A model generated the notes under the pieces. It had not been told where the DNA came from, made no database searches, and saw only the letters and a program-made list of their open reading frames with translations. Both the position numbers and the translations under genes were made by a program. A DNA stretch of 60,764 nt, counting the filler, from Hausera hauseri (taxonomy: Eukaryota): NCBI GenBank assembly GCA_046269625.1. It is 11 parts of 11 records of this genome, joined end to end, with 100 filler letters (N's around TTAATTAATTAA, not from the genome) between each part and the next. Parts side by side here need not be neighbours in the genome. Positions count along the whole stretch, not along the records: positions 48,239 to 52,350 come from JBJURY010753209.1; positions 52,451 to 60,764 come from JBJURY010687660.1; 9 more parts are not named here. One strand, 5' to 3'. Shown piece after piece: positions 8,170 to 60,764 of the stretch. How positions within the stretch are numbered: position 1 is the stretch's first letter; each line of letters opens with the position of its first letter.

Positions 8170-9433
8170 TGTATGAAGTAGGTGCTCGGGTTACTCGTTG
8201 AACAGACACAACCTTGTATTTATTGGGCCCTTTCTGAATAAAGAGTGTCTGTGGGCGTACATCGACAACTTTGTACGGTCCTTGACCTGTACGTGTTAAT
8301 TTTAACGATTTGCCTTTCTTTACCACGGGGTAGTGAATCATGACGTAATCCCCAATTTTATAAGTATGTAGTCGTGCCTTTTTGTTAAATTGCTTTTTAT
8401 ATCCGGCTCTATAGTTTTGTTCAAACTCTTGCTTCTTTTGGAAAATATTCGAGTCGTTTGAGCAAATTCTGGTATTGTTCATCCATATGATCACCGGTTA
8501 ACAAGGTTGATTTTAATAATTCCGTATCTAATTGTAGTAAAGGTAATCGTCCGAACATTAACTCAAAAGGTAAATGATTGGTACTTTTGGTAGGTGTAGT
8601 ATTGATTACAAAGGCCGTGGTTTTCAGACGATTGTGCCAATCTTTTTCATTATGCGCTACATTTGTAGAAAGAATACGCTGAATAGTACGATTAATCCTT
8701 TCGATCATACCGTTACATTGAGGATGGTATGATGTCGTCAATAAATGTTTGCATTGGAATATTTTTGATAAATTTTCAAAGAATTCGCTAATGAAATAAG
8801 GTGCACGATCAATTAACAACTGTTTCGGGGTGCCTAGTACGGCAATGATTTTATAAAAAAAGGTTTCAGCGACTGTACTACTGTTCATGTTTTTTAATGG
8901 TACCAGTACAACGTAGCGAGAGAAATAGTTAACAAGTGACAGTATGTATTTGTATCCTGAGTCCGAAATCGGGAATGGCTCAGAGATGTCCATTGCGCAC
9001 ACTTCCATTGGCCTACGAGCTTCAGGTAAGCATCCTACAAACGGTTTGATACAATGTCCTCTATCTTTCCCATTCTTACCTATTCTTCAATATGTTTATT
9101 CATTTGAGGCCAATAATATTTAGCAGTTATACGCTTCAACGTCTTACTTAAAGACGGATGGCCAGCTAAGTGTGAATCATGTTCTTGAAGCATGATGGCT
9201 TTGATGGCCGGTGAAGGCACCACAAACAGTTTTCGTTCTCCGACTCCGAGTCGTAAAATGCCATCTTGAATTACTAAGTTGGCTCGGTTCTTTTTATAAA
9301 ACTTTTGAATGTGGTTTGATGCCGAGTCAACTATTTGTCCATTGATTAATTGTTTGATTTGAACAATAAAGGGATCTTGGTTTTGTAGAGTCTCGATATT
9401 TCGCACTTGGATTTGGCGCTGTTCTTGTAGCAT
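8170..9433 (-). pseudogene. Gypsy-type integrase (copy A)
   Basis: EHDSHLAGH..YYWPQM; AMDI..YILSLVNYFSRY; YHPQCNGMIER; PFELMFGR; GPYKVV. Confidence 0.92.
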
Positions 9434-9479
9434 GCTATATTTACTTTCAAATGTTTATCGCTCTCATTGTCTATGGATT

Positions 9480-10385
9480 TAAAAGCTTCGGCTACTATTC
9501 CTTCTTATGGCATTCTTGAAAGAGCATCGATGTCCTTGTTTTTTTGCCGGGACGATATCGATACTCGAAATCATAATTCAAGAGTTCCAACTTCCATCTT
9601 TGGAGTCGACTTGATACATGTCTATTGTCTGAGCGTAGGATAATAGTGCCTTATGGTCAGTAAATATTATAACCTTATGACCGTAGACATAATATTTGTA
9701 ATGTCGCAGTCCGTCACGGCTTGCTAATAGTTCTAATTCAGTAGTTGAGTATTTCCGCTCTGCATTATTCAAGCTACGTCCACCGTAGGCAATTACATAT
9801 TCGGTTGTTTCTTCTGGATTTTGTTTAGCTAATATAAAACTAATGGCTTTAATGCTAGCATCGGTTTTTAAAATGAATGGTAGTGAAAAATCTGGGTACC
9901 TCAATATTGGTGCTGACACCATTCGTTTTTTAATTTCATAGAATGCGTTTTGGTTCTCTTCGGTCCATTCCCATTTTTGGTCTTTCCGTAATAATATATA
10001 CTGAGGTTGATTAATTTCTGCAAAGTCGGGAATGAAGGTAGCATGAAATTCTCCCAATCCTAACAATGCTTTCATTTCATGCACATTGGTTGGAGGGGAT
10101 ATTGCAGTATTTTAGTTACTAACTCAGGGCTAGTTGATATACCTTTATTGGAAACGACAAATCCCAGGTATCTAACCTCCTTCTTACACCATTCACATTT
10201 CTTGGGTTTAATTTCAATTTAGCAAGTCTGATTCGGTCGAATACTTACTTCAATTCCGCTAAATGGGCAGATCATGTCTGGGACGCATTAAGGATATCGT
10301 CTATGTACGATAATCCTCGCACGCCTTTTAGTACTAGACGAATGAACTCTTGGAAGAAAGTGGGTGTCGTCTTTATGCCAAATGG
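9480..10385 (-). pseudogene. RT C-terminal half (N-terminal half deleted) and RNase H (copy A)
   Basis: VPFGIKTTPTFFQ, SYIDDIL, KCEW..KEVRYLG, FILKTDAS, VIAYGGRSLNNAERKYSTTELELL, FTDHKAL. Confidence 0.9.
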
Positions 10386-10699
10386 AACATTAAGTGTGTC
10401 TTCAACATTATTATATTCCGCTGTTGATGTGGTCGTAACTTTGTTGTCGTATTTCTCTTGGCGTGTAGTCTCCAGGGCTTGTCCAATTTGCGTTTTAGTG
10501 AATATCGTGACACATCTTGGATTGGGATGTAGAACTTCTACGGGAATGGTTCCTCCAATTACTTTAACGCAATAATGTGGTTTCGGTACGAATTCGATCA
10601 CACTGTTGTCTGGGAATATCGTTCTGGCGTGTATAACCATTCTAGAGGTGGGTGGTATTTTCTCAACATGTCTGTTTTGTTGTAATTAGGGGGTTTATC

Positions 10700-11045
10700 A
10701 TCATTATTTGGGCAAATTGATCCCAATTGTAGGTTTAAGTGTACACATTCTAATTTTCGCAACACGTTCATACCCAAAATGCATCGCGGATCCAAGATAA
10801 CCATTACATCAAAAGTTATTTTGACTCTGTCCGCAAATCCATGGTTCACATTTCCAGTATCCATAAGGTATACTGCATTGGTGGAAGGCCGAAGTAGTAC
10901 CAGGCGAGCCTTTAGTAGCCAATTTTATTTGAGATTGTAAGTCTTCCGGAATTGCATGTTTTGCTATTAATGCAACGTTAGCTCCAGTGTCAACCATAGC
11001 ATTTAGGTCGAAACTATCAAAGTAAACTGTGGGGTGAGGTCAATT
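10700..11045 (-). pseudogene. Retropepsin aspartic protease (copy A)
   Basis: AMVDTGANVALI and downstream CILGMNVL. Confidence 0.85.
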
Positions 11046-11699
11046 ATCCCGTATCAGCTCGAGAAACGTTAATACTTCGTTATGATTATCTATATGTGGT
11101 TTCATCAAGCTGTATCTAGCTGAACAATATCGGGTAGTGCCACTTGATAATATAACCGGTAAACTTTCCAAAATTAAGTATTGTTTTCCACTTCTTTCAC
11201 TCCCTCTTTGAGTTCAGTCAGGTTTGGGTAGCAACTTACACGTTGTAATGTTGTGTTTTGCTTACTAACGTATTCTAAGGTCGTTACATGGGGTTATCTA
11301 TGTACTTGATCTTTCATTAATCGGTTTGTCTGGTGATAAGGTAAAGGTGGCAATATACCTAACTTAGGTGATGTAGGTAATGTTACACGGTTGTTTTCCA
11401 TGTTTCGTGTTATAATGGATTGACGTATCTCTTCCTGAGAGTATTTTGGTAAATTACACAGTTTTATATACTCCTCCATTTTTCCATACGAGTCCTTTAT
11501 GTCTGTTAATATTGGTAATTTACAAATGAACACTGTTCTATTCTCATATGGCGCAGCAAGTGATTTGGGTCTATTTTTCTCCTTTGATTTCATAAACCTG
11601 AATTTCCATTTCGTATCTTTTGTAATCCTTGTGGTATGATAGTATCCAGGAGCATTCTTATCATCGGAACTATACGGGGTGTCCCTTGAAAGTTGCTTC

Positions 11700-13079
11700 T
11701 TCGATTTATAATCGACATGTTTTCTATTTTACCTCACCATTGTTTCTCATGGTAAGCTTTAATGAATTTACCAAATGTGGAAAATGGAGCATTTATTATG
11801 CTTAGAGATACTCCTGTTAAGTTGTAGATCTCATAGGCGTTTAATACAAAATTGATACAGATATTCAAGGTCTGTATAATGAAGTATATGGCCAGAAACC
11901 CACAGGCTACTTGGTCAAATCTCAGGAATCCGCCACACATATTATACCACAAATTTGAAACGATTTTAGTATAGGCGTCAGGTGTCTACAACCGGTCCCA
12001 TTTTACTTCTCCGGCTGTGTCGTCGATTACTCAGTGTATTTTGCGATTTACTATTCGTTCTCTCCGTCGAGGATATGCTAAAGACTTCACAAATGAGTCC
12101 ATTTCTTTTTTGCTTTATAATTCGGATTTGGACACGTCCGTAAACATATTGATTTCAATTGCATGTTTCAAATTCGCCATGGTCAATTTCTTCGGTCTTT
12201 CTTTAACTCTTTCACGGTCCGGTAATCTAACCCAAAGATCCTGATTATCGTACTTTATAAATGGTTTATTCAGTTCTGAACAATTTTGGATTTCGGTGGG
12301 TATTGTATGTGGCGCTAGAAGTACTCTGGTAATCAGTTGAACATATCGGATTTCTTCATTATACCTAACAGGTATCTCAGAGTAACATGGAGTACGCCTA
12401 ATCAAGAGTAGGTCTATTCTTTCACATTTGTATGTATATAGCACTTCTCCTAGGACTCTGCCCCGAATTCCTTCGACGAAAGGGAGGGTTATTGTGATCA
12501 TTTCTGGGTTAGATGAGTATATGGCCAAACGGTTTGTCAAAGTTTCAAAATTCATTCTGAAAAATTTTGAATGGTCTAAGAGTATATTTCGTCAATTGCT
12601 TTGTGAGTTAGATAAAACAAAAAATCATCAAGGTGTGCGATATAATCGGCAATATTCATTGACTGGGCTTTGTTAATGGGAGGATTATCCGCACATTTGA
12701 TCTCTCTTTTCGATATAAAATAATTATCGTAATTAGTATTGTACACTTGTTGTCCGCATTTTGTAATCGCGTCTTGTTGTATAAATTTGACTCCTCCTTT
12801 AATATCCTTAGATATCACAATTTTAGGAGTTTTTACTTTAGGAATAACTTAAATATTGGTATGCTCGAAATTAGTCTTATAGTGACGGGCATAAATTTTT
12901 CCTGTGGTTACAATAAATTCTCCTTTTCTGATTTGTACAAATGTACAATCATGCCTTGTGGGGGGGTGTCCACACTATTGTAAATATTCTAGTATGACAA
13001 TGTCCAGTTTGCAACTTACAAAAAAATGCGTCTACCACTGTGTTTGTACTAATCCTTAATTTCGTCCTCGTACTGGTCA
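11700..13079 (-). pseudogene. Chuvirus/gB-like fusion glycoprotein, C-terminal part (copy A)
   Basis: GRVLGEVLYTYKCE, CYSEIPVRY..RYVQLITRVL and TM FLAIYFIIQTLNICINFVLNAYEIY; collinear with 58062-59240. Confidence 0.8.
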
Positions 13080-18460: not shown

Positions 18461-18856
18461 TGTACGCTATCGAAGAAACAAGGATTACATCTTTCCAAAC
18501 ATTTCTTTTAAATAAAATTACTTCTCACCAACTACACATTAACTTTTTTCCCTACACTCATCTAACCTGATACTCTTTCTCTCTCCCTCTTCGCCTAGCA
18601 AAGTACTCTCTTCGACTATTAACCCTCCCCCGGCCTCAGAACATAAATATACTATTTCAGCAAACCAGATTTTTTTGTAACATTTCGTACAAAATTCATG
18701 AAGAACGGACCTTGTGTAACAACTGAACCAGATTCCCCAATAACTAGGTATTGAACAATTAAATATACAATATTTAATAAAACAGATACGATAGAGTGTA
18801 GACCTTTCTATCAAAATCCTCATCTATGTTGTTTCATATCCTTTGATAAGGAATAT

Positions 18857-19741
18857 ATGATATGGTATTGGACAGGATTGAAAACGAATGGTGGCTGGAA
18901 ATGGTCGGATGGATTAATAGGTCCAGAAGTAATAGTGAGATCACCGAGAATAACAACTGCTACTACAGCAACGATGACTTCTATCATGGACTTAACGACA
19001 CAGAAACTGACTAAGGATATGAACGTTAATAGGAAACTGGATATAACCATACAGTCGATGCCACATTCTCTCATTATTACGGCATCGAACTTGAAAAATA
19101 CAAACATAAAATTTGAGTGTTTTCTTTATGACAGAATGATTAGTGAAGGAATTATAACCCCAGATGAGCCTACATCAGCCTGTATGTTCCTAAAGGCTAA
19201 TACAAATTATAAAGTTGTTATAACCGAACTAGATGAAGAAGGACAGAAACTACAGACAATCTATCGTATGGGAAGAACGTTAAACCAACCTATTATAACG
19301 ACCGTGAATACCATAAAAACGGTAACTGCACAAAATTATATAAATAATTCCAATATATACCTACGGATAATAATCATATTATGTGTATTCTTAGTATTAA
19401 TAGCTGTGTTATTACCCTTAATAATTTACTATTCCAGAATAAGATACAGGAGGCGCAAGACCCAAAATATTATACAACAGCTAAAATTATTAAGGGACGA
19501 TTCCCAAAATGATACGGGTAATGAAATAGATGCGCTTTTCCAAGCTGAGAAGCTACCAGATTCTAAACGGCCATCTCAACCGTTAACAGATGTTACACTA
19601 TGTATGTGTACATGTACAAAAGATGAGGCTGAAAAATTTTTGGCGACCTACCAAAATAAAACCAATTATAAAACACCCAGGCTGCAAAGCTTTGTGCAAC
19701 CTATCATAGAATTTTTCGAAACTTTTCATGGCTATTATTGA
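18857..19741 (+). CDS. Type I membrane protein C-terminal part: C-type-lectin-like end, Thr-rich stalk, FN3-like domain, TM, cytoplasmic tail
   Basis: YWTGL..GGWKWSDG; TTATTAT; LKANTNYKVVI; IIIILCVFLVLIAVLLPLIIYY followed by RIRYRRRK; 5' part disrupted. Confidence 0.7.
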   Translation: MIWYWTGLKTNGGWKWSDGLIGPEVIVRSPRITTATTATMTSIMDLTTQKLTKDMNVNRKLDITIQSMPHSLIITASNLKNTNIKFECFLYDRMISEGIITPDEPTSACMFLKANTNYKVVITELDEEGQKLQTIYRMGRTLNQPIITTVNTIKTVTAQNYINNSNIYLRIIIILCVFLVLIAVLLPLIIYYSRIRYRRRKTQNIIQQLKLLRDDSQNDTGNEIDALFQAEKLPDSKRPSQPLTDVTLCMCTCTKDEAEKFLATYQNKTNYKTPRLQSFVQPIIEFFETFHGYY

Positions 19742-21243
19742 TATATTTTCTTTCAGTCCAAGACGGTGCCGAAATCGTCCAACGAGTCAAATCTTTTTAT
19801 TATAACGTCGCTTCTAATCTCAATTCCACCCAACATAAAGACTATATATATTACGGGAAAGCATCCCTAATACCTAATAATATCAAAGGTCATTTGGTCA
19901 CACAGAGAGCAGGATTGATCATTAAATTACCTAATGCAGCAACCAGATTGTCAGATTTAGTAGACACATCCGCGAAAACAACCTTCGTTTATATATCAGT
20001 CATCAGAGCAAGCCTACAATTGAAAAGTAGAAGTCATCAGACCGATATAACAGATCAACTCAATGTAACTCCCTTCTCGACAATTCGTTTAGATCATCGT
20101 CTCTATAAGAATGCCAACATAACATTACGAACCTTTGGAGGACCTAATCCCATTCTATACATTGAGGTTACCAGGAGGGAGAAAATCTCTCATCCAGAAT
20201 ACGATATACCAATTTTTAATACACCTCTTCCAAACAAATCCGAATTAGAAAAAGGATGTTCCTTCTCTAGAATTTCTCCGGTTCCTAGAAGCCAAGTTGT
20301 TATTGTATCCACAAATGTTGCATATTTGATCAAGGACAATAGTTCTCAAGCTACACTTATAGAAATTACCATAATGGATTTAGAGAAAAAAATCCTCCTC
20401 GATCAGCTTATTACCACACGAGGACGCGTAGATAATTACAATACGCAAATAACCGGAATACGGGAAGTAGACTTAATCGGCCAAGCCGACCAATACCAAA
20501 TTTGGCCTATGATTAGATATCATTTAGTAGGAAAAATGATTGTATCAATGGATATATTTAATATCAATTCACAAATTGCCCTCTTCAATACGGATCGTAT
20601 AATGGGTATCCGAGATTTGTATTACCATGATGTAATAAATCCCAAGAAAACATTAACCCTAAAACAAGTTTTCTTAAAATTCAATAATATTATATATCCA
20701 ACACGGACAAAGGATAAAGCATTGGTCATTCTTAATATCTATAACAGTCTAAAAGAATATCAACATCAAGATGTGGAGACAAATCTGATACCAACAGCAC
20801 ACAACATTTCAAATGAACACTCCACTTCCCTTACTTTATCTGATGACAAGATCCATTCATTTACTCCAGAATTAATGGATATAACCGATTCCTTCAATAC
20901 AACAGAACTACAGATCAATACATCAGCTATTGTCGATCTGATTGAAGAATCGCCGATCGCTCGACCAGGACCTTCAACAAAAGCCCAACCTGACCTTTCA
21001 GCAACTGTTATACCTGATAAACAGATAGTTGTTGATTCAACAAAGAAAAAAAGAAAAATGCCCAAAGAAGATACCATTACTTTAAAACTGAAATTCAAAC
21101 AGAAAGGCTTATGGCGACAATACGAATCGTCTAATTATCGTGTAGAAAACGAAACCTTAGAAACCTACCCAGCAATGCTGAGGACAGCATTGTCTGAGGA
21201 GGGAAATATTAGGGAATCTGATATCAAATGTGATCAAAAGTGA
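19738..21243 (+). CDS. 501-aa protein with REXO4/ISG20-like DEDDh exonuclease domain (~20287-20745) lacking catalytic residues
   Basis: LLDQLI..RVDNYNTQITGIREVDL, LVGKMIVS and IRD align by eye to REX4-type exonucleases; the DxE position reads STN; intact ORF (TTG start listed). Confidence 0.7.
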   Translation: MIYFLSVQDGAEIVQRVKSFYYNVASNLNSTQHKDYIYYGKASLIPNNIKGHLVTQRAGLIIKLPNAATRLSDLVDTSAKTTFVYISVIRASLQLKSRSHQTDITDQLNVTPFSTIRLDHRLYKNANITLRTFGGPNPILYIEVTRREKISHPEYDIPIFNTPLPNKSELEKGCSFSRISPVPRSQVVIVSTNVAYLIKDNSSQATLIEITIMDLEKKILLDQLITTRGRVDNYNTQITGIREVDLIGQADQYQIWPMIRYHLVGKMIVSMDIFNINSQIALFNTDRIMGIRDLYYHDVINPKKTLTLKQVFLKFNNIIYPTRTKDKALVILNIYNSLKEYQHQDVETNLIPTAHNISNEHSTSLTLSDDKIHSFTPELMDITDSFNTTELQINTSAIVDLIEESPIARPGPSTKAQPDLSATVIPDKQIVVDSTKKKRKMPKEDTITLKLKFKQKGLWRQYESSNYRVENETLETYPAMLRTALSEEGNIRESDIKCDQK

Positions 21244-34292: not shown

Positions 34293-35047
34293 NNNNNNNN
34301 NNNNNNNNNNNNNNNNNNNNNNNNNNNNNNNNNNNNTTAATTAATTAANNNNNNNNNNNNNNNNNNNNNNNNNNNNNNNNNNNNNNNNNNNNGAAGAGAA
34401 AACAGAACAAGAGGAGAAACTTTATCCTAAGAAGTGGAAAATCAGACGTTCATGGAAAAACGCCGAATAATTAAAAAGAATGAGGACGAATTGTCTCAAC
34501 CCAGAGGTAGTACAACAAAATCTAGAGAAACTCAAAACTATAAGTGAACACGTGGATATTTCTGGCAAGGAACAACAGTTTGTAGAGAGATTATACAAGA
34601 AGATGAAACTATATAGTGAAGGAAAATTAAGTTAATCTATAGACTTAGATCAGCCTGAAGAAGTGGCAACAGAAACACTAGTTTAGTGGAAACGCGAATT
34701 AGAACGGTGGACTAAAACTAAGACAAAACTTCCGGAGACGTGGGATAAAACTACTCAAGAAATCGAAGCTAGAGTCAACCAAGCTTAGTCGCTACTAACT
34801 ACATTAGAAGCCAACCCAAAATTAAAAATAGTAACACGTAATTTAGAGCGCTTGATGAACGAAATTAGATTAGTCGAACGACTCTAGCGAAAACCGGTCA
34901 AGTAACGAGATTCAATCGACCTAGAGATTATAGGCATAGACTCGCTAGATATTCCATCTTTAATGGAAATGATGAAGATCGCTTCTACGGCATCAAAACA
35001 ATATACCAGTTTGGAGAATCGCATTAAAACTGAGGCCGAAAAAAAGG

Positions 35048-35917
35048 ATGAAAATATATGGTCTAAAGAATAGGATTATGTACCCAACTAACGACAAAAC
35101 ACGGAAAATAATTCTGGTTTGTACTCTCGAATTCGACGAATATAAAGACAAGTTCGACTACGCCCGTCGGGTCATTGATTTTATTAAAGGTCCAGATGAT
35201 GAGCTAGAAGACGCTCACAGAATGTTAGACAAAGCAATGCTGGAAAAACCAGAAATTACGAATCAGTTGAAAGAATGGTCAGAAGTAATAACAATGTTGA
35301 GTAAATTAGTAGCCAATCGAAGAAAGTATTTTCCAAAGAGCGAACCTTCAGTGAAAAAGCACTTGGAAGAAGACGCCCGAAATCTAGATACGATGAGAGC
35401 AGAAATCGACATCCGAACCCAATTTGACGCACTGCGTCAATTGGGCTTTATGGAAAAGAAACAAGAAATGACGATACTAGATGATATGTACAAGATGATC
35501 GAAGAAACCTACTTTATGCGGAAATTGAATGCAACCTGCGACTTTTATCCGCCATTGAGAGATGTCTGCCTGAAAGAAATACAGTACTTGACAGCCAAGC
35601 CTATCAAGGAAATCTTGACTCGAGACCTTAGAACCTTGGACTTTTGTCCCGATTCTCGGTCAATCGTTGAAGCAGCGGCAAAGTTCATACGCCATCTACA
35701 AGAATGGATGGACGGAACGGATCAGAGGCATCACACCGAACTGATTAAGATAAAGAACGACCACCACCTTAGCCTTGAAGAGACCAAATTTGCAAGAAAG
35801 TTGTTAGATGCGATAAATCCAGATTCAAAAAGTATTAACGAGATGTATGAATTAGCGCTATTAATGGCGGAAATGGCAGAAACTAGTGACGAGAAATTAA
35901 GGCAGTTATTGCAGTAG
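35048..35917 (+). CDS. Open fragment of the helical accessory domain
   Basis: 289-aa E/K/L-rich ORF collinear with 54802-55860. Confidence 0.7.
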   Translation: MKIYGLKNRIMYPTNDKTRKIILVCTLEFDEYKDKFDYARRVIDFIKGPDDELEDAHRMLDKAMLEKPEITNQLKEWSEVITMLSKLVANRRKYFPKSEPSVKKHLEEDARNLDTMRAEIDIRTQFDALRQLGFMEKKQEMTILDDMYKMIEETYFMRKLNATCDFYPPLRDVCLKEIQYLTAKPIKEILTRDLRTLDFCPDSRSIVEAAAKFIRHLQEWMDGTDQRHHTELIKIKNDHHLSLEETKFARKLLDAINPDSKSINEMYELALLMAEMAETSDEKLRQLLQ

Positions 35918-36539
35918 ATACATGAAGTCGAAAAAACTTGCATTAATACCAAACAAGAGCGATGAGATTAGACGAACTAGATAGAGAACTCAAAGTCTAT
36001 AAAAACAAATACGCCCTTACAGAAGCAAAAATTGTTGACAAGTTGCAATTAGCTCAGAAATGAGAAGACGAGGATCTAGAACACCCTATCGCATATTGAG
36101 GCATTCTCTAAAGAAAGCTATTCTGTAACGGAGTTGGAAACGTTAGCGGTGAAGAAAGTCCTGCAACATTTTAACCTATACCTCTATGGAAAGAGAATCG
36201 TAATAGTCACTGATCACAAAGAGGTCACGACCTTGAAGGGTAGAGCAAATAATCCAACCTGTAGACTCAACAGATGGATCGAGGAGATCTCACGTTACAA
36301 TACTGATTTCCAATACAAGCCCGGAAATAAACATGTCGATGCCGATGCATTATCGAGATTTAGAACTAAAACAGGCGCAGTTACGGTAATGAGGAACGCC
36401 CATCTAGAAGACTTAGTAGAAAGACAACGAACTTTTACACTAGATAAATAACTGAAGATTGCTGTCGAACAGAGAAAAAACAATGTTATACAACAAATTA
36501 TCGAGTTCGTTAAAACTAACAAAACACCAAAGAGTCATC

Positions 36540-37700
36540 AGTTACGGAAACACCTACGACGACGTGGTCACAAATACTGCGTCGCAGGAGATTTGAACCT
36601 GAAAATGTGTTGTACTACGAACGAAAGGGACGAAAGTTAGTCGTTATACCAAAAGGATTACGTGCAGAAGTACTAATGGTCAAACACGACTCATACCTAT
36701 CCGGACACATGTCGTGGAAGAAAACATTGGAAAGAATATTAAATAAATATTATTGGCCGAGTATTTACGTCGACTTGAGAAATTGGGTGAATGCTTGTGA
36801 GGTATGCGCAAGCAAAGAGAGAAAAGTTGAGAATTACATCACCGAACTGAAACCCATCAATGTGCCGGATAGACCAATGCAGGCAATGTTCACGGATATT
36901 GTAGAACCATTGCCTACGACTCACAAAAACAACAGATACATCTTGACTTGTGTAGACCGATTGACTCATTTCGTTGTGCTCATTGCGTTAATAGACTAAA
37001 AGGCTGAGACGTTGGCAGAAGTAGTCGTCCGAAAAATTATTTGCAGATTTGGGCCGCCTGAACAAATTTTGACAGACCGAGGGAGAAACGTTACGAGCGA
37101 ACTGTTCAAAAAATTACCAAAATTTTTAAAATCGAGTGACTAACCACAACAGCTTATCATACCCAATGTAACGGACTGGTTGAACGGATGAACGCGGAAG
37201 TTACACAAATCTTATCAACAGTAGTGGCAAAAGACCAGAAAGATTGGGACGAGTTCTTAGAAGGTACACATTTTGCCATTAATACTACCCCACATCCTGC
37301 AACGGAATTTACTCCGTTTTTCATGACGTACGGTCGAGAAGCTGTACTGCCTACAGATTTAGGACTGATTCCATATACAACCAGAACGGAAGACTTAAAG
37401 CAAAATTTTGTCGAAGTATTACAATTGAGATTACACAAGTGTCGCAAAATAGCCAAGGAATTATCTAAAGAATACCAGGAACAATTTCTGAAGCAGTACG
37501 ACAAGAAGGCTAAATCACACTACCTAGAACCGGGAAATTTGGTTTACGTATACTATCCAGTAGCAAAGAAAGGCACATCTCTTAAACTTACCATGACAGG
37601 CAGAGGACCTCATGAAGTTACCAAAACTACACCAACAACGGTTTATATAAATAAAAACGGCAAGGAGGAGATCATATCGATTCAAAGAGTAGTTAGAACG
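36540..37700 (+). pseudogene. Gypsy-type integrase (copy D)
   Basis: HHCC finger, TDIVEPLP..YILTCVDRLTH, TDRG, YHTQCNGLVERMN, TPFFMTYGRE. Confidence 0.92.
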
Positions 37701-37799
37701 GAAATAAGACCAAACAAACGCTATAATTTGCGTTCGAGCAAAACAAAATCGGACTATACAAATAAAGAAAAGAAAAGGTCGTCGATAGTGACTAGACCA

Positions 37800-38729
37800 A
37801 TATCGTATGTACAAATATTCCTCGCCTTATCGTTAATCGCTTTGTATATACCAAAGACAAGGTCGATAACCCCAACAGAAAAATACAATATGCAGCAAGA
37901 CAAAGGGATATCCAAAACTTACAGTCACTGAGAGTGTACGATATGGATTGGAGCAAACCTTGTGCGTGGTTCGAAGCAAGTGAACCTATTGAGAGCCATG
38001 TGAAATTTCACATAATATTTGTAACTAGATCCACGATTAGAACATGCGATTTTCCGCATGGAGTTCATAGGAAATGTTGCGATTTGGATTTCGGACAAAC
38101 CTACCGATACAGATTTTAAATTTTCTATTATAACCAACCCGATGCCCAAGCCTATATAATTACGGAGCTTCTAATAAGGATGCCTCAAAAAATGACACGA
38201 ATCGAGCCAAGACGGAGGAGATAATCCAAAATACTGACTTATTTAAAAGGCTCTTAAATTATAACATTATTGGGATTTTCAAGGACTTAAAAAACCAATG
38301 TATTCGAATTGAGACCAAAATAGAACTGCCAGGAGACAGAAAAATTTTTGTCCGATTTATACCATTAAACGCCTCAGTTCTTATTCCCGAGTATTGTTAT
38401 CTTGCACGACGACAGACTACCTTGTGCTGTAGATTAAAGTTAGGACATAACTACCAGTTACAGTTTGATCTGTACAACACTGATCTTAAAGAACCGAGTA
38501 CTTATTTACGGGGATACCGCCAAAAAATTGGAATATGGAAACTCCCATTCCCAACTACTACGAGGAAACCGTCTACAGTCACAAGTACCACTCTCACCAC
38601 TGCTATCGTCACTTCGGATGAAATGGAGGAAACATACCAGTTAAGATTTTGGCAAAAAGTGATAAAATTCTATTTTACGCTGAAGAAACGTTGAATCAAG
38701 ACTTCAAAATTGAATGTCGCACCCTGCAC
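37800..38729 (+). pseudogene. Post-integrase membrane-protein ectodomain (copy D)
   Basis: YVQIFLALSLIALYIPKTRS in frame with integrase; repeats KPCAWF..TCDF..KCCDL...Y and NQCIRI..EYCYLARRQTTLCCRL...Y; Thr-rich stalk. Confidence 0.7.
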
Positions 38730-42975: not shown

Positions 42976-43040
42976 ATTGTTATTGGCACATTGGTACTGA
43001 ATATTTGATTTTTCGACTTGGTAAAGGAAATTACGTGCAC

Positions 43041-44450: not shown

Positions 44451-45149
44451 AAGATTATCAAACATCCATTTGCTACTGAACCTCTATTTTAACTCGAAAT
44501 ACTACAAGCATTTTTGTTGTTTATTTGAACGTATGGTGAAATTGAACGGATCGACTAAAAATGAAAATAGTAAAATTAAATATTTCCGAATAATGTAGAA
44601 GTGCAAAAGTTACAATGTGGCCGCTTTTCCCGCAGTCGTTTTATTGCTGTATTAAAAAATTGATACGACCGATTTTTCCAACTGCTGGAAATCAGATTTA
44701 TATTGGCAACAATGAACAGGAAAAATTTTGACATGTTGATATTTGTCCTTTTTGGATCCTTTTCAAAATGGTCTCCACCTTGTCTTTTAACTCAATTTGT
44801 GAATATTATCAGCAAATAGATGTCGTTGATGTAAAAAAAACCTATCCCGATTACCAAACCAGAGTTTATTGTCATCATAATTTTTTGTCAATAAAAATTT
44901 TTTTGTTTAAATAATGTAAATGTGTTTTGATAGACACTTGTAATTTAATTTGAATACAATTTTAACAATCATTTTCCTTTTAGATTGTCGGATCTTATTT
45001 TTTAGAATTTGTGCTCTATTTATTTGGAAATCTATCGAAATTTCTTTTATTCTCTAAGATTGGAATTAATCCGATCACTTTTATATTTCTAAAATTGAAT
45101 TAATCGCTCATTTTGAATTTTATACTGTATAACTGGATATTTATCAAAC

Positions 45150-47848: not shown

Positions 47849-48138
47849 TGTAAGACTAAATTATGCATTAGAAATTTATTATAAAAGTTGGTATAACAAT
47901 TAACTCATTTACTTATTAAATGAGTCTTATTTTCTTCCTTTTTTTGAATTTGGCAATTTATTGAATTGGCTTTGAATTAAATTTAAACATTAATATTCGT
48001 TTAAATTCCTCCTCACATCCGTCTCCTTTAAGAATTTCCGCAGTTTTTCCACATTTCTTTCCAAAATGAGACCGTCTGCGTGTTGCAGTACGTATCGTCT
48101 GTCGTGTTTTCTTTCAATGACTTCGTGTGGCCCTTCAT
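47849..48138 (-). mobile_element. 3' end of a third gypsy family nested in the preceding element: integrase GPY/F tail, PPT and 169-bp LTR (47849-48017)
   Basis: EGPHEVIERKHDRRYVL..ERNVEKL; AAAGGAGACGGA then TGTGAG...CTTACA with internal AATAAA. Confidence 0.7.
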
Positions 48139-52200: not shown

Positions 52201-52694
52201 TTTGTACATTTTAAATGCAATAAAACGTTTTATTTCCCAGAAACGAAATTGTCTATGAATTAAAACAAACCTTTTTTGAATGCGACAGTATATATCCCCT
52301 CTTCATTGTTGTAAAATCATAGTTTGTAAAATAAGTCTATACAACTTGAANNNNNNNNNNNNNNNNNNNNNNNNNNNNNNNNNNNNNNNNNNNNTTAATT
52401 AATTAANNNNNNNNNNNNNNNNNNNNNNNNNNNNNNNNNNNNNNNNNNNNGCTAGACATTACTTTCGAGAGTCAATTAACTACATACGGGCGAATAGCGC
52501 CATTTACATTAAATAATTGTTATACAATACGAGTGAAGATTTATCCTACAGCAAACATTGATAGGATCAACTCACGTCAAAACTTATTAGTAAACGGTAC
52601 AGAGAAAATTAATCAAAGAGAAACATGGAACAAACTCTATATTTAAGATAAAGTAATAGACAAACACGGTTTATCCGACACTGAACTAACTTTC

Positions 52695-53918
52695 GTGAAA
52701 GAATTTAAAGCTTCTCCTAAAATTCATAAAGTATACAAATCGAATAAATTAAAGATATCAGCAAATAACCCATCTATAGCACAGAAACTTGATATATTTA
52801 CGTTCGATTCCTTAAACTTATTGGCATATGACGGAGACCCAGATGGGTTAAATGTCTTTTTAAGAACTTATAAATTGAATACAAAATGTGCCAGCCTTTC
52901 GCCCGAAGTTATGATTAAACGACTGTCATTATACTTAAGAAACCTGGCTGCGGACGCCTATAGTGAACTTGCCAACGACGAGAAGAAATCATGGTCCTCC
53001 GTAGTAAGAGCCCTGAACCGCAAACTGTTGCCGACGGTGACGCCTCAGCAAAAGCTTATGGCCATCCAAAACAGAACGCAACAAAAGGGTGAATTTGTCA
53101 TCCAATTTGCATTTGCACTGAAGAGGCTTGCTAATAGTTACGTGAGTACGCTAAGGATAGCTAATGCGGCAAAGGCAAAAATAGACGCGGAACGCGAAGC
53201 GGCAGAAAAAGCTCGCCCACCAGATTTAGATGTCATGATGACAACTCAATTAATAAACAGTATATGGTCCAGAGATTTAGTTAAGCAACTAATTCTGGCT
53301 CGACCAGGCAATTTCGAGACTGCATTACAGTTAGCACAGAATTTAGAAATGGCACTAGATAGATACGCTGACAGTGATAGATATGACCGAAATAATGATG
53401 GCGATAATCGGGAGAAAAACCGAAAAAATAGAAGATTTAACGATAATATTAACGACCGAGACTACGAGAATAGAACTCAAAATGCCACTAATCGCAACAC
53501 GCGATATGATAATAGGAACTTTAGTGCTAATCGGAACATATACAAAACAGGTTATAACCCGGATAGAAACCAAAATAATGACCGAAGTAATAAGAACCGA
53601 TATATAGATAATCGAAGTTTCAAAAATAGAAATAACGGAACTGACAAGCAAGCTCAAAACAACACAATAAGTAGACCCAAATCACCAGTGAATGAAGACG
53701 GAAGACAAAGGATCGGCCGAGACGGAAACCTGATTTGTTATTCATGTGGTAAGGAAGGACATATAGCTAGATCATGCCCTAATCCATGGAGTGTATCATT
53801 TGCAGAGACTAGTAAAGCTAGTACGATAAAAGATAATTTGGAAGGAATCTACGGAAAGCGAGGAATACAAAGGAATACGAAGAAAAGCTACACCAAATTG
53901 AAGTTTATCATGGGCTAA
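52695..53918 (+). CDS. gag: Gag with CCHC zinc knuckle
   Basis: YDGDP..FL, retrotransposon gag-like core (AADAY..L, QQKGEFVIQFAFAL), N/R-rich linker, CYSCGKEGHIARSC. Confidence 0.9.
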   Translation: MKEFKASPKIHKVYKSNKLKISANNPSIAQKLDIFTFDSLNLLAYDGDPDGLNVFLRTYKLNTKCASLSPEVMIKRLSLYLRNLAADAYSELANDEKKSWSSVVRALNRKLLPTVTPQQKLMAIQNRTQQKGEFVIQFAFALKRLANSYVSTLRIANAAKAKIDAEREAAEKARPPDLDVMMTTQLINSIWSRDLVKQLILARPGNFETALQLAQNLEMALDRYADSDRYDRNNDGDNREKNRKNRRFNDNINDRDYENRTQNATNRNTRYDNRNFSANRNIYKTGYNPDRNQNNDRSNKNRYIDNRSFKNRNNGTDKQAQNNTISRPKSPVNEDGRQRIGRDGNLICYSCGKEGHIARSCPNPWSVSFAETSKASTIKDNLEGIYGKRGIQRNTKKSYTKLKFIMG

Positions 53919-53968
53919 GAGAACCAAAAACGGAATACGAAAAAGCAATAGCACCTAAGAGTACTAAC

Positions 53969-56256
53969 ATGGCCAAAAAGAAAAATTTAAATCAAGCAGC
54001 GAAAGAGGAGAAAAAAGAAAAGCCGACTACGTCTTCAAGTGTAGACTTGGACGCAGATACCGAAATCGTGTCTCAAAATAAAGACAAAACAACGGACGAA
54101 GTTGAAAGTGAATTCATTGGGCCATTAATACTCAAGATAAACAAAAATAGAAGTAGAAGCCCCTCTCTTAGGAGAAGGTCGGGAACTCGCTCACGATCCC
54201 CTATTAAAAAGGGTGCAGAAAAGGAGGAAGACTTTACCATCACTTTAAGAGACGAAACAGAGTTAAATAATCCTGTAATAACCCAAAGCGTGCCGGAAAT
54301 AACAAATATCTCGAATATCGATGAAATTAATGAAATTGTCCATTACCACCTAGTGAAGAGGAATCGGAAGAGGAGAAATCTATCAAATTTAGGAAGAGTA
54401 AAAAATCTTGGAAAAATGCAAGCGAACTAACCAAAATAAGAGATACGCCGGATGATCCTGAAAGGCAACAAGAAAGCTTACAAAAACTTCAGAAGATGAT
54501 CAGGCAGTTGGATATCTCCGGAAAAGAACAACAATTTATAGAAAAGCTATATAAAAAGCTTAGATCCGGTTCTCAGAGAAAGGAAGAAAATACACCTTAC
54601 GAACTGCAAGAAATGCCGCAAGACTTGATAAAAGGTTAGCAAAATAAATTAGAACTATGGACAACGAGTGATGTTGATTTTACGAAAATATGGTGGAATA
54701 AAAACGAGCCGTTTCTTGACCAGGTTAATCAAGCGCAAGGGCTGTTAGACACACTTAAGAACAATCCAAAACTAAAACGCGTAAGACATAATTTAGAAGG
54801 ATTGATGTATGAGATTAAAGAAGCGATAATTTCTTATCTTCATAAAAAGCCGGTGTACGAACTGACTAATGCCGACTTAGAGGTACTGAATATAGACCAA
54901 ATCGATATTTCCTTTCTAATAAAAATGTGTAGCTTAATAAAGGATAAACCTCGGAAATACCCAGATTTAAAAATACGTATCGAAATAGAAAATGAAATAC
55001 GAGCCAAAATTAACGATTTTAAGATCGGTATAGTTTACTTTGAAAAGGCAGAAGCACAGAGAATAATACGTGCTTGTCTTCTCGAATTAGATGAGTATAG
55101 AGAAGAATTTAACTACGTGAAACAAATCATAGAATTTGTACGAGGATCAGATCACGAACTGAAAGAAGCTTTTGAGGCATTAAACGAAATAATATACGCC
55201 AAACCAGCAATATCTAAACAATTAAGGAAGTGGATAGACTTGTTACCTTCAATAGCAGGGATAATAAACGAAAGACTAAGAGAATTTGCTAGGGCTGAGC
55301 CTATAATGAAACACCAATTGGAAGAAATGCTAATAGATATTGGTACGATGGAAGATGAAGCGAAATTGCAAAGTTAATTGGAATCATTTCGAGAACTTGA
55401 ATTTATAAGCAAAGATCAAGACCAAACATCACTAACAGAGATATATAGTATGATAGAAGAGAAAAAATTCTTCAAAAAAAGAAATAAGCTAAACGACCTC
55501 CAGCGGAGTTTAGCTAACATTCGTTGGGAAGGGATACAGAACCTAATGCAGAAACCCTTGAAAGAAATATCAACACAGGAAATAGAAACATTAGAAGTGT
55601 GTAACGATTATCGGATTGCCCTAGCACAAACACTACAATATTTACAAAATCCAGCAAAATGGACGCCAGGTTTTGACTTACATTACCACACCAAACTAAC
55701 GGAAATTCGGAAGGATCTTCAGTTGACGGGCGATGAAGCCAACTTTATAGGCAGGTTAATGGAAGCAATAAATCCGGATGCTGAAGTAATATATCTAATG
55801 CACAAATTAATCATACTATTAATAGAAATGGCAGAAATTGAAGAAGTAGTAGCGAAATGACTAACAAATCGTATACGTCTAGTAAAAGAAACTCGGTTAC
55901 GCTCCGAGAAAAGACAACGCGAGCTAAATAAATTACTGAGAGAAACAGAAGTTTACAAAAACAAGTATTCCCTTACGAAATCTGAAATGAATGACAAAAC
56001 GGAATTTATACAGAAATGGCAACGAGACAGAATCGCAGAAATGACTAGTTATCGGGAGAAAGCCTTGATACAACCAGAAGAAATGTGCCGATTAATAACA
56101 TTGATACAACAAGCGTGCGGAAATAGAGACGGATTTAGAATATCCGTAATGAAAACATTGCAACCGCAGATAAGAGAATTACGCGAAAGAATCCAGGTCG
56201 GACATGCGGCACTAACGAACTACGAGTTACCTGACGCAGATAATGAAGCCGAGTAG
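53969..56256 (+). pseudogene. RS-rich linker plus long alpha-helical accessory domain of unknown function
   Basis: RSRSPSLRRRSGTRSRSP; ORFs 54802-55377, 55378-55860 and 55987-56256 share one frame, split by stops; homologous to 34393-36045. Confidence 0.75.
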
Positions 56257-56539
56257 GATGAATATCTCCAAGGTCTAACCGAGCAAAGTCAAAGAACTCC
56301 AATACAAATTTATGAGTCACCTACTGGTGCACAGAAGACGAAATTTGATGTGCAAATGCTACTTGATCCCACGCTAGCTGAAAAGGAACTGAGCAGTATG
56401 TTGAAAATAAACATAAGCGAAGATAAGTTAAGGAAATTTATTCCAACCTTGACTAAGCTATCCAGTGAAAATACCGCATACAGCGCCGTACCCAAGCTCT
56501 TAATAAAAGAATACGCTAAACTATTGAAAAATAAACAGG

Positions 56540-56775
56540 AAGCGGAAATCAAAGTGAAGGTATCATCCGACGGGATGGACAATAAGGAATTTGAATGCAC
56601 TACTTGCACCACCGTTTCGGATATAAAACAACGGATAATGGATAAAGAGGATAGAAAAGGAGTCAGTTACCGACTCTATTTCAGAGGTAGGATATTAGAC
56701 GAGCTAGAATCCTTGATAGATGTAGGGATTATACCTTCCGAGGAAAATCGAATAATAGCAATAATCGCCAGTTAG
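56540..56775 (+). CDS. Ubiquitin-like domain (within ORF 56350-56775)
   Basis: IKVKVSS...EFEC....TVSDIKQRI..K......YRLYFRGRILDELESLIDVGI follows the ubiquitin pattern; no C-terminal GG. Confidence 0.75.
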
Positions 56776-57462
56776 CAGACCAAAGACGAAGCCATAAGAA
56801 GGGCACATACAGAACATTGTGTTGGAAAAATCATGGGGATTCGAGATGCCGCAATGTATTTCGAATACTTACAGACTGATGATGACAACCCGCAATACGA
56901 TAGGAACTTAATCCCTCTAAGCGAAACCATACCACCGGTAAAACCAAAACGACCGGTCGGAAGACCAAGAAAAATGAAAGAAAATGACTATAACGCAGAC
57001 CTAATCAGGGAATTGAGACAATTATCGGTACCAACCCCGAGTTCAGATAACGAAGAACTAATTGAGCTAATGAAAGACTTAATCAGGATAGTCAATTATA
57101 CCGGACTCCAAGGCAACACTATCGGAGAAGAAAAAACTAATATATATAATATAGCCTGGACAATGAAGACTTCACGATTCAAATTGTCTAAAAGCACTCT
57201 TCCTGGCGAAACAGTAATTGATAGAATTATGATAGATAATACGATGGAAGAATTAAGGAAAGTCTTGAGATATTTAGCAGTAAGAACTAATCCACTTCGA
57301 GAAAACGAATTTGACAAGATAATTGGATTAGCTTGGAAAGCTGCAAGAAGGGTACCTAAAGAGATAAAATGGACTAAATTATTTGAAAAAGAGGATAATA
57401 CAAAAGGGACTAATAAGTTAGAAGACATGAAACGAAATATCTCTCCAAACAAAGAAAACGAA

Positions 57463-59240
57463 TTAAAATGGCTAATCAACTTACTGACAATAATGATGCT
57501 AGTAAAGCAGATAGGAGCCGTCACTATATATGATTGCGATAAATTCAAGGTGGGTAAGAAATATTCCTTGATGGACGTAGAAACATGCGAAGATGCGAGA
57601 CCTCATAAACTCGAGATAACAGAAAAAAGGTATATATTATATCAACAACGTGAATTAATAGCAATGGTTGCGACGAAATGCATAATACGACATCTCGCAG
57701 CGTTTTTCATTGTGGTAATATGCACGGACATTCTTCAATAATCAAACCAACACCATTAATCCCGATGAACGTAGATAGACAACACGTTTAGGAGCCTGGT
57801 TAACCGGTAAAATGGTCTGGAATGGCATGGAATTAGAGGCCCAAGAGGGAAAGATAATTAGAGCCTACAAAGTGGCAGTCGGAAAACTAAACATGCACAC
57901 CGGTTACTGCGTCGGAGCAGAATATGACAACGGAAAAGGAATAGAAGGAGGAATAGTAGTCGTAGATTTTACGAAACCGAGCTAAGATCCTTAAAAGCGA
58001 TGTTCCATAGTGTTACCAAACTATTCACCGAAAACCAAAAGTATCGTATTCAAGATGGTGCTTGCACATTTCGAAGTTAAAATTTAATGAGACAACCGGA
58101 AAACGCTATACAAATAAATTACACACTAATACGAGATCAAGGGAAGACGTAATAGAAAACTCCACACCGACCATATTGATATCGGATACACATGAGTTAA
58201 CGTTTATTAAAAAGGATATGTTAACGCGATGTGATGTGGTTATGTATGCCACAAATTACGAAGCATTTTTCGTAGCAGAAACCGAAATTAACATGAAAAC
58301 GTACGATTTGAAAAAGCAAGATATACGGATCAAAGATTACCTCAAAAATCGAGACGACTATTTTTATTACAAAGGACAGACCGGAATAGCAGAGCTATAC
58401 CACAAAATGATAATAAATGACTGCAGATTAGATACTGAAGTCATGAGAACCAAACTGGCCTTAATTTATGCCAAACCAGAATTGGTATCACCAATTATAC
58501 CAATGAAAGATGGTGTCTTTGGACGAGTTACCGGAGAAGTCCTACTAACTTACAAATGCGAAGAGACGTGCCGATCAACGTAGAAGAAAAAAGATGCATG
58601 CATGAATTACCAGTTATCTATGAGAATATGCCGAGACTAGTGATGCCACTCACTAGGGTATTATTGGTCAACTCAACCGAACCAACTATATTGAAGGAAT
58701 GCAAAACGAGCCTGGGTGAACCTATGTTTCGCCGTAGTGGAACAGACTGAATAAGTTTACCTAATGTAGGTGCCGCTACGGCCCCTAGTAAGCTAACTGG
58801 AACAAATCTAATCAAGGGATTATCGGAAGAGAAGTTCGAAGACACGGTTAATAAAGGGATTTATAATCCAAAGGACATAGAAGTTTTTAGGCAATTCTTA
58901 GCCTTTCAACGACAAGGAACTCATGAGCTGAATCGGGCCATGTCAATGGTAATGGATGATACCCGCTTTCAAGCAAAATGGGAATCATTACTTGGCGCCA
59001 ATCACTATCAAATAGTAACTTCGGAAATATAAGATTTGGGGAAGATTTTTGATCTTCGGACAAGCTGAATCTGGATTCCCAGCCATCTACTTTTTAGTCC
59101 AACTAATTAAAGCAGTGATCCAAGCCATCATCAACGGATATGAAATATTCACATTAACGGGATTTTCCTGCAAAATTCTGACTGCAATTATCACACCCTT
59201 CGGAAAAATGCTTAAGGTCTATAAAGAAAATCGATGGAAA
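57463..59240 (+). pseudogene. Chuvirus/gB-like (class III) fusion glycoprotein with signal peptide and TM (copy E)
   Basis: LKWLINLLTIMMLVKQIGA|VTIYDC..YSLMDVETC; TKCII..FHCGNMHGHSS; GEVLLTYKCE; CMHELPV..PLTRVL; C-terminal hydrophobic segment. Confidence 0.85.
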
Positions 59241-59889
59241 AATGATGTAGAACGCCACGTCGGATACTATAATCGCAAACGACGAGGGAGGCCCTCGATT
59301 TTGTATAAACGTAAAAACAAGAAAACCACAACACGAAAGGATGATTCAGATGATGACCAACCTAAGGGAAGAGAAGAGAATTATAGAATAAAGATGCACA
59401 AGATGTACTCAGTGATTAACGCGCCATTACCCATCCTGCCACCAACAGCACCAATATATGAAGATTTCGACCGCAAATCGGTCGTATCATGTAAGTCCGA
59501 AATCTATCAAAGGCGCATTAATTATGAAGACCCTTATGAAAAAACAAAACAATATGGAGTACTACGGAAAATGAGTGTTATCAACCGAGGACCAACAGAA
59601 AACGACCACGGAATATTATACTCAAAAAGGATACCGCGTCACATAGAATCAAAATCAAAGATCTTGGAGAACCCGAAACTGTGCTCGATCCCGGGTCCAC
59701 TACCTCAAGAACCCCTCATCGACAGTCACGTCAATGAAATGACGAATAATAATCTATACCCAAGTGGAGAATTGAGACAATTAAGAGAAAATATTCTCTC
59801 ATCGCCAGAGATAACAATAAATGGACACAGAGTATCTACCACAAAACAATCAAAGACAGCGTCGAATTGCTTTTGGACAGTAGTAGAAG

Positions 59890-60230
59890 GCAGACCTTTC
59901 GCTAAAATACATATTGAAGACTGGGACGTATGTCTTAATTGACACAGGATCAGAAAAGTCGTTTATAAAATACGAATCGATCCCAACTACACTACGGGAA
60001 CAACTGCGTCCACCGTTATCATCGGATCCTGGTAGTATAGGAGCATTTGGACAAGTATCAAAGCCGAAATTTAAATGGACTCCCACCGTTTATATAATGG
60101 GCTAAGCACTTCAACATGAATTTGCGATAATGGACCAATTAATGGACGATGTAGTACTAGGTTGTGATATATTGAAACAAATACTAGGCATGGCAATCAA
60201 TGTGCATAACGGAAAATTAATTGAGCTCGA
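59890..60230 (+). pseudogene. Retropepsin aspartic protease (copy E)
   Basis: RPFAKIHI / VLIDTGSEKSFI ... DVVLGCDIL; 1-nt frameshift before DTG. Confidence 0.88.
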
Positions 60231-60764
60231 ACCGATAAAAGGGACAAAAGTAATAAAGGAAAGGAAATCGGGCGAAGTATGGATTCTAGTAGATGAGGAC
60301 ATTCCGCCCAGAACTGAAATGATAATTTTTGCACAAATTCGTCAAGACGATGATCTACCGGTATATTTCGAACCCCAAGAAAATATCGATCCAAACCTCA
60401 TGCTCAGTAATATTCTGTGTAGAGTAGTAACGGGCCGAATACCTATCAGATTAATGACCAACGCAACAACTCCAGTGCGATTACACGCCAATACTAGTTT
60501 AGGTCATACTTGCAGAGTATCGGCAATAACGATAGAGGAAAAACCATACAAGTGCGCGGAATTTCCCCCTCATGTTGAAACCAAATTTTCTACTGAGGCG
60601 TATTGCAAATTCTATGAATTACTCTGTAAATACCGATCAATAATCGCACAAAATGAAGAAGACATCGGTAGAGCCAAGGCCCTACGATTAACAATTCCAT
60701 TAAGAAAGAAACCCGGCTCGAATGACGAAATCGATCTAGAAGAAAAGAAAATGCCCAAATGGTA

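Follow-up and report, generated by a model that had tools for sequence, protein, structure and literature searches.

The window, that is, the whole 60,764-nt stretch of DNA that was analysed, consists of 11 contigs joined by N spacers. One of these (52451-60764) very probably (we put the probability at roughly 0.9) carries, in decayed form, a large, highly repeated Ty3/gypsy element of the published GAG-ENV-POL, Burro-like kind, for which enveloped cell-to-cell spread is likely. In its intact relatives, a single frame runs from gag through accessory domains, a gB-like fusogen and pol to a second membrane protein. The domain order, the open frame in relatives, the class III fold modelled for env of a relative and the FN3-like fold after the integrase are directly supported. 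The window copies are dead.

Organization of the element

Contig 52451-60764 encodes, on its plus strand, gag with a CCHC motif, a helical region, a ubiquitin-like domain, a signal peptide, a PF24664 glycoprotein, a TM segment and a protease (Table 1), although stops and frameshifts interrupt the coding. This order had been read in a preliminary description and is borne out by Pfam matches and hydropathy; likewise, the env TM, the tail and the protease strand RPFAKIHI do share a frame, that of ORF 59019-59942, with DTG just downstream in another frame. We discarded the idea of a programmed frameshift from env to pol, because the frame stays open at the protease in the second subfamily and in the relatives. 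In run X1, 17,467 contigs map onto this contig, with all 30 bins represented. The earlier estimate of 15 kb or more for the composite coding length was somewhat too high: the parts of the polyprotein sum to ~12-12.5 kb, or ~14 kb counting the downstream ORF. The window contigs, which stop inside or near the coding region, revealed neither an LTR nor a PBS nor a target-site duplication, and no Rfam family occurs in the window.

Table 1. Positions of element features in the window
Position	Strand	Feature	Evidence and remarks
52647..53915	+	gag, capsid-like region and CCHC zinc knuckle (53736-53783)	PF00098 zf-CCHC, E 1e-6
53837..54427	+	Basic Ser/Arg-rich linker	ORF list; frame differs from gag
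54430..56253	+	Accessory region, ~600 residues	Helical by eye; one frame, three in-frame stops
56317..56772	+	Small N-terminal cap and ubiquitin-like domain (56551-56730)	PF00240, E 9e-6
56950..57450	+	Pre-env region	Position of Bcl-2-like candidate domain in several relatives
57472..57522	+	Signal-peptide-like segment of env	Hydropathy; aligns with env start of P0003
57523..59200	+	Class III (chuvirus/gB-like) glycoprotein, TM ~59082-59132	PF24664; several frameshifts and stops
59200..59894	+	Cytoplasmic tail/linker	One frame with TM and first protease strand
59895..60764	+	Aspartic protease and PR-RT spacer	Frame broken ahead of DTG, with one stop further on; contig ends before RT
11680..12965	-	Second subfamily env, C-terminal two thirds with TM	PF24664, E 1e-15 and 2e-10
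8180..11039	-	Second subfamily PR, partly deleted RT, Ty3-type RNase H, H2C2 and core integrase	
6702..8032	-	Second membrane protein: signal-like (7982-8032), Cys-rich ectodomain, FN3-like (6825-7160), TM (6702-6752)	
18755..19738	+	3' part of another member: weak C-type-lectin-like motif, FN3-like motif, TM, tail	
19672..21240	+	Exonuclease-like ORF	Homolog of the RNase_T (PF00929) ORFs that follow L002 and L003
26711..28078	+	CCHC-bearing gag of one more member	28% to first gag, E 3e-21
34393..38729	+	Internally deleted member: accessory region joined straight to RH-IN, then signal-like segment and same Cys-rich ectodomain	

The window gag matches those of relatives L001 (E 9e-8) and L002 (E 7e-13). 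The Ser/Arg-rich linker has no Pfam family. The accessory region resembles 34393-36060 (31-49% identity), and no homolog was found outside the window (the word-index protein search was empty, which is weak evidence); nor did it yield a Pfam family above cut-off, a PDB match, an Atlas match reaching 0.9 or an internal repeat, the repeat score being reached by 63 of 500 shuffles. The cap and ubiquitin-like unit is common to relatives (P0154 match, E 3e-5), and its alignment (A5) matches ubiquitin, ISG15 and SUMO. Within the pre-env region, which is otherwise unassigned, lies a motif that we take to be AT-hook-like. Bcl-2 profiles built from three and from seven relatives did not pick this region among 621 window pieces, and an Atlas search gave no usable match; even in relatives, the Bcl-2 matches are weak (P0006, E 1e-3; L001, E 0.03; neither passes the cut-off). 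BIR, MATH, Smc and ankyrin domains were absent from the 38 window pieces scanned with Pfam, in a window that holds no whole element; ankyrin is present in relative P0156. The PR-RT spacer matches that of P0010 (E 3e-16) and is homologous to the spacers of relatives, albeit with no Pfam match.

The order glycoprotein-PR-RT-RH-INT claimed for 5894-13079 was also found, with RT partly deleted; however, this contig represents a separate subfamily and not a copy of one element, as its env is 29-44% identical in amino acids to that of 52451-60764 and blastn gave no match between the two contigs. Its pol order (PR-RT-RH-IN), Ty3-type RNase H and H2C2 integrase are those of Ty3/gypsy elements (Metaviridae), the lineage originally proposed, and the best PDB match of the RNase H is Ty3 Gag-Pol (E 4e-17). 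The two integrases present in the window group as sisters (96/96); the trees were used for this point only, since those of RNase H and integrase lack Burro and BEL/Pao references, the window RNase H forms a long branch and the outgroup row of the integrase tree aligned poorly (19%).

Gag and RT occur together on none of the window contigs, and none is open from gag to pol. The proposal that the fusogen is internal to a polyprotein therefore stands for relatives only: L002 is one 3703-aa ORF comprising gag (two CCHC motifs), a ubiquitin-like domain, env, PR, RT, RH, IN and a final TM. Env and protease share one ORF in 11 of 14, 3 of 3 and 2 of 6 relatives in three scans, the relatives having been picked mostly by rank and length among the 150 matches listed. 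At L001, one of three loci, an in-frame stop lies directly before the env signal segment.

The internal glycoprotein

The signal-like segment of env shares its frame with the accessory region. Downstream, the Monjiviricetes fusion glycoprotein family PF24664 is matched at 58011-58580 (E 7e-12) and 59019-59939 (E 7e-13), and four of five env pieces are collinear with residues 142-741 of P0003, scoring above all of 200 shuffles; the fifth (57779-57982) gave no collinear alignment to P0003 above shuffles. The env that was modelled is that of relative P0006, which is 28% identical to the window's second env, rather than the broken env of contig 52451-60764; the model (pLDDT 82) is matched by Foldseek to HSV-1 gB (E 9e-14) and to G of the chuvirus Tacheng tick virus 4 (E 1e-43). 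A class III fusogen between gag and protease, as first suggested, is thus upheld by the Pfam family in the window and by the fold of the relative. A word-index protein search with one env piece found nothing (weak evidence), and a scan of viral contigs with env found no relative. Across relatives that are only ~30% identical, env is full length with conserved cysteines, which, together with the confident class III model, points to selection for fusion.

It is highly improbable that the glycoprotein stems from an endogenous chuvirus fragment or some other element that landed in an ordinary gypsy copy, or that the arrangement is an assembly chimera. The assembly is indeed fragmented, one contig of run X1, at low depth, passes over 57065-59385, and contig 34393-38729 is without env; the latter, however, also lacks PR and RT, and is therefore a deletion derivative. 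Moreover, the flanking repeats by which the preliminary description would have recognized a nested insertion are missing, save for a 35-nt match at 69-74%, env occupies the same place in two window subfamilies and in many open-frame relatives, and L002 and L003 contradict an insertion or chimera. More remote still is a BEL/Pao element, presumably Anakin-like, with env 3' of one pol and then the protease of a neighbouring element: BEL/Pao elements do carry the same Pfam family, and P0142 has DUF5641 and then env, but the pol adjoining env is Ty3-type, gag and not integrase lies upstream of env, and the 38 window pieces scanned yielded no BEL/Pao family.

A membrane protein after the integrase

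A second protein with a signal peptide, an ectodomain and a TM, placed after the integrase, is present in three window contigs, and at least two hydrophobic segments follow IN in all eight relatives that read past it. The single window copy modelled has a predicted fibronectin-III fold, whereas the Cys-rich ectodomain has no PDB match; searched against longer proteins, the FN3 alignment had three matches, to one relative and to two bacterial FN3 proteins (E 0.01). The member at 18755..19738 was not recovered by a leave-one-out profile. The exonuclease-like ORF is separate and 3' of the second membrane protein, and matches the ORFs downstream of L002 and L003 with E 5e-11 and 2e-10, with no Pfam match of its own. 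The preliminary description does not include the post-integrase membrane protein, and we found no description of it in the literature searched, although Grohme 2018 and Lee 2026 may annotate it.

Hydropathy and the known processing of viral polyproteins suggest how such a chain might be made. Gag and the accessory domains would be synthesized in the cytosol; an internal signal peptide, the first of two, would then thread env into the ER, where signal peptidase would release it, and the env TM would bring the chain back to the cytosol for synthesis of PR-RT-RH-IN. A second signal peptide and TM would insert the FN3-bearing protein, and the element's protease would cut the cytosolic parts. Until it is cut free, pol would be tethered to the membrane through the tail of env and so carried to where budding occurs. 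Fusion would be the task of env, with the second protein probably acting in attachment or in the choice of membrane site.

The same anatomy could also serve an element with no extracellular phase, env and the second protein acting in the cell or at cell-cell contacts (between stem cells, for example), or env being a passenger, with spread within cells only. In typical retroviral particles, gag, env and pol are not present one-to-one, so the one-to-one ratio expected here is atypical. Furthermore, the Burro passages of PMC6431247 offer the provirus as a hypothesis and hold no particle or fusion data, and BURRO1 is reported in PMC8532177 to be a highly abundant, active retrotransposon held down by PIWI. 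The signs of selection for fusion in env argue the other way, and we regard a purely intracellular element as unlikely, although far less so than an insertion or a BEL/Pao origin.

For an enveloped element, the second, receptor-like membrane protein likely helps particles to attach to cells. More tentatively, Burro-like elements in general may be enveloped metaviruses with a two-part entry apparatus in one polyprotein, namely, the gB-like fusogen and a fast-evolving, FN3-like type I protein after the integrase, with variable extra domains and, in relatives, often a PDZ-binding end, which might attach to cells or pick the budding site, by analogy with herpes gB and its partner glycoproteins. 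A separate attachment protein beside a gB-like fusogen would, if true, constitute a compact fusogen-plus-partner entry system, and the polyprotein would cross the membrane four times to yield gag, env, pol and receptor-like protein in equal amounts; the part after the integrase is where the significance may lie.

Comparison with known systems

The preliminary description did not recognize the layout, which is in fact published for Burro (PMC6431247) and for GAG-ENV-POL errantiviruses (PMC13524379). The comparison with planarian Burro that it proposed reveals the same layout, and the family appears Burro-like in layout and domains when set beside the description of Burro. According to the Burro section of Arkhipova and Yushenova 2019 (PMC6431247), Burro and GYPSM1 are giant gypsy-like planarian elements (Grohme 2018 and Jurka 2007, as cited there), whose env lies between gag and pol in the same frame, preceded by a ubiquitin-like domain, and decayed copies are reported in Dugesia japonica. 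As described there, Burro shares with the present family a single long ORF (here in relatives), gag with CCHC, an accessory region, a ubiquitin/SUMO-like domain between gag and env, a mononegavirus-like env in frame before PR, a PR-RT spacer and then RT-RH-IN. Burro is further described with Bcl-2 directly before env and with BIR, MATH, Smc and ankyrin domains, none of which was detected in the window, and it differs in having two or three CCHC motifs instead of one and a polyprotein of 4,873-5,140 aa (~4,000 aa here). Burro also has a dUTPase-like region between PR and RT, where the window has the spacer without a Pfam match, and it exceeds 30 kb in total, with long LTRs and a planarian host. 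The window has a 600-residue accessory region for which no homolog was found outside it, and that section mentions neither a second membrane protein after IN nor an exonuclease ORF.

BEL/Pao elements with a chuvirus-like env (Dezordi 2020, as cited in PMC13524379) share the glycoprotein family but have another pol family, with env 3' of the integrase (as in P0142); neither Pao-type pol domains nor env after integrase, as in Belpaoviridae, was found in the window. The G proteins of Chuviridae/Monjiviricetes and herpesvirus gB, all class III fusogens, share PF24664 with env here and the fold with env of relative P0006, at 10-23% identity, whereas env here sits within a retroelement polyprotein.

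Chary and Hayashi 2026 describe GAG-ENV-POL errantiviruses with gB-type env in nematodes, bryozoans and flatworms (PMC13524379), the flatworm and bryozoan elements with called LTRs being ~10-13 kb; the main text as available mentions none of fibronectin, Burro, polyprotein, in-frame or accessory. Their Ty3/gypsy pol, gB-type env and env between gag and pol are each found in the window. By eye, the Schmidtea mediterranea env rows in the supplement have YQES, ECTV, TPT-L and KCG--VY-TNY in common with relatives, and the last two motifs also occur in the window. The layout is already known, and the window adds a divergent, decayed subfamily to the described group.

Architecture and abundance of the element

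The element is real and was read correctly in the preliminary description, and its kind has already been described. The finding is carried by the last contig (52451-60764), on which the proposed order of gag, accessory region, signal-like segment, glycoprotein (env), transmembrane segment (TM) and protease (PR) is present, broken by stops and frameshifts. The ~1,100-codon frame runs from an unassigned accessory region through a ubiquitin-like domain (PF00240, E 9e-6) and a signal-like segment into the glycoprotein, the remainder of which is spread over several frames. Two glycoprotein pieces match PF24664 above the cut-off; four of five align in order with the env of P0003, a related protein, and in those four, eight of nine aligned cysteines are kept. 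As claimed, the TM, tail and first protease strand share one frame; the DTG motif lies downstream, in a different frame. The order of glycoprotein, PR, reverse transcriptase (RT), RNase H (RH) and integrase (IN) proposed for a second contig was likewise seen.

Features of the env-bearing family in the window
Feature	Coordinates	Strand	Remarks
gag frame with CCHC knuckle	in contig 52451-60764	+	423 codons; 5'-most
Short linker frame	in contig 52451-60764	+	between gag and the ~1,100-codon frame
Frame of ~1,100 codons	54430-57738	+	five in-frame stops
ORF with TM, tail and first protease strand	59019-59942	+	
env, PR, RT, RH, IN	contig 5894-13079	-	RT partly deleted
gag of a further family member	26711-28078		
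Family member	contig 34393-38729		accessory region directly joined to RH-IN

In the public sequencing run X1, possibly the source sample itself, 0.36 of the words of the 3' half of contig 52451-60764 are present. At 85% likeness, 17,467 X1 contigs align to this contig and 4,269 to contig 5894-13079, covering all 30 bins of each, the depth not being equivalent to copy number; these matches show that the family is highly repeated and diverged. The envs of the two contigs are 29-44% identical, and no nucleotide match between the contigs was found.

Two mutually related, ordinary gypsy pol regions without env lie at 22170-25950 and 43927-48138, the former ~1.5 kb upstream of a gag belonging to the env-bearing family. 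Elsewhere, contig 1-5793 has an identical 77 bases at both ends, as expected of an assembled circular or tandem unit, and a 437-codon ORF (3706-5016, minus strand) without a Pfam family. A 68-bp satellite fills 13181-17875 (about 70 copies, 73% matches), with two more copies at 30912-31065. The latter lie within one of two decayed fragments (28179-34292 and 38830-43826; about 80% similar; DNA_pol_B_2 at E 1e-7, weak adenoviral protease match) that we take to be Maverick/Polinton-like; a Tc1-type transposase is found at 28179-28624.

The glycoprotein as an integral part of the element

The anticipated similarity to Chuviridae G and herpes gB is borne out by structural matches of a model of the env of P0006, a relative 28% identical to the window's second env. 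This model, built with 81 sequences (pLDDT 82), matches chuvirus glycoproteins at E 1e-43 and herpes gB at E 9e-14 (TM-score about 0.35). The closest match of the second contig's RH is Ty3, and there are no BEL/Pao families among the Pfam matches of the window pieces.

Searching with HMMER for relatives of the second env, its stops replaced by X, gave 253 proteins at E ≤ 0.001, of which 23, or their cluster members, picked mostly by rank and length, were scanned. Env and protease occupy a single ORF in 11/14, 3/3 and 2/6 relatives of three scanned sets; the others end at env, or are fragments, stand-alone glycoproteins or, in one case, a BEL/Pao env. In P0009, P0025, P0066 and P0158, the ORF with env also encodes a gag family (CCHC or Retrotrans_gag) upstream of it. 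Among three metagenome loci examined, L002 runs as a single 3703-aa ORF from gag, two CCHC and a ubiquitin-like domain through env, two proteases and RT-RH-IN to a membrane protein at the C terminus; L003, from the start of its contig, stays open over 3426 aa. In L001, gag, a ubiquitin-like domain and a weak Bcl-2 match are followed by an in-frame stop ahead of env, the sole counterexample to a strictly single frame.

A nested insertion would place env between its own repeats; no bounding repeats were found in the window, and env and PR share an ORF in relatives, L002 included. In X1, one contig of low depth is missing almost the whole of env, and contig 34393-38729 is without PR and RT too; we read both as deletion derivatives.

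In P0009, P0156, L002 and L003, two to six or more copies of the protease domain lie between env and RT; a single copy is seen in the window contigs. The NCBI record of P0005, an open env-pol polyprotein of the same family, assigns it to a Flavobacteriaceae MAG as a hypothetical protein, probably through eukaryotic contamination.

A second membrane protein after the integrase

The main point of interest, overlooked in the preliminary description, is that the reading frame does not end with IN: a signal-like segment, an ectodomain and a TM follow. This module is complete in contig 5894-13079, extends to the ectodomain in 34393-38729, is represented by its 3' part in 17976-22069, and occurs in all eight relatives that read past IN (P0066 and P0012, which stop before this point, are not counted). 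The motif C-x2-L-x3-T-x-[YH]-[IVL], picked after the sequences were seen, is present in this part of six of the eight; a stricter form is absent from the 17,278 residues that lie upstream in six relatives. L003 has an additional signal-motif-TM module between its proteases. Leave-one-out profiles recovered window piece 6816-7343 at E 6e-4 and four relatives at E 0.005-0.11; they failed to recover the window piece at 18755.

Against the PDB, a six-sequence profile matched mostly FN3 domains (Dscam, E 0.002; EphA2, E 0.005). A modest model of 6825-7160 (pLDDT 59, core 56-77) matched IFNAR2 D2, an FN3 fold, at E 3e-4, and fibronectin with Z 9.1 and rmsd 2.1 over 78 residues. Of the relatives, which are not independent, 5/8 have a class I PDZ-binding motif at the C terminus, versus 10/92 other proteins; the tails of the window copies are broken. 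The module was not found in the accessible article text that was searched.

Upstream of the FN3-like motif, a short C-type-lectin-like motif (18860-18931) matches NKG2D/KLRG1 over 17-24 residues (single-domain E 0.04-0.3). Downstream of the module, L002 and L003 each have a distinct ORF that weakly matches RNase_T exonuclease, and a homolog of this ORF lies at 19672-21240. By eye, P0027 and P0061 have exonuclease-like regions upstream of env within the polyprotein; in L002, L003 and the window the ORF is separate and downstream.

Proposed mechanism and comparison with known elements

We infer the whole mechanism, from topology and cleavage to budding, fusion and attachment. Alternating signal and stop-transfer segments would expose env and the FN3 protein to the lumen and keep gag, the accessory domains and pol on the cytosolic side, the chain being cut by signal peptidase and the element's own protease. 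Tied to the env tail, pol would be carried to the membrane at which budding takes place; membrane fusion would fall to env, and the FN3 protein would probably attach to a cell-surface partner or determine where assembly occurs. The rival, an element without an extracellular phase, seems to us unlikely, if far from negligible.

The layout had been thought undescribed, which does not hold: it is of the same kind as Burro (giant planarian gypsy-like elements) and the GAG-ENV-POL gB-type elements. Burro, according to PMC6431247, has a 4,873-aa ORF: gag-CCHC is followed by Smc, MATH, a ubiquitin/SUMO-like domain and BCL2, then by env, which matches mononegavirus fusion proteins, and finally by PR, a dUTPase-like region and RT-RH-IN. 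On domain content, the element is not filed as Burro proper: no Bcl-2 match was obtained in the window, and Pfam found no BIR, MATH or ankyrin there. According to PMC13524379, which cites Sacco 2022, GAG-ENV-POL gB-type elements occur in Nematoda, Bryozoa and Platyhelminthes, and the S. mediterranea env rows shown there resemble, in a comparison by eye only, those of the relatives and the window.
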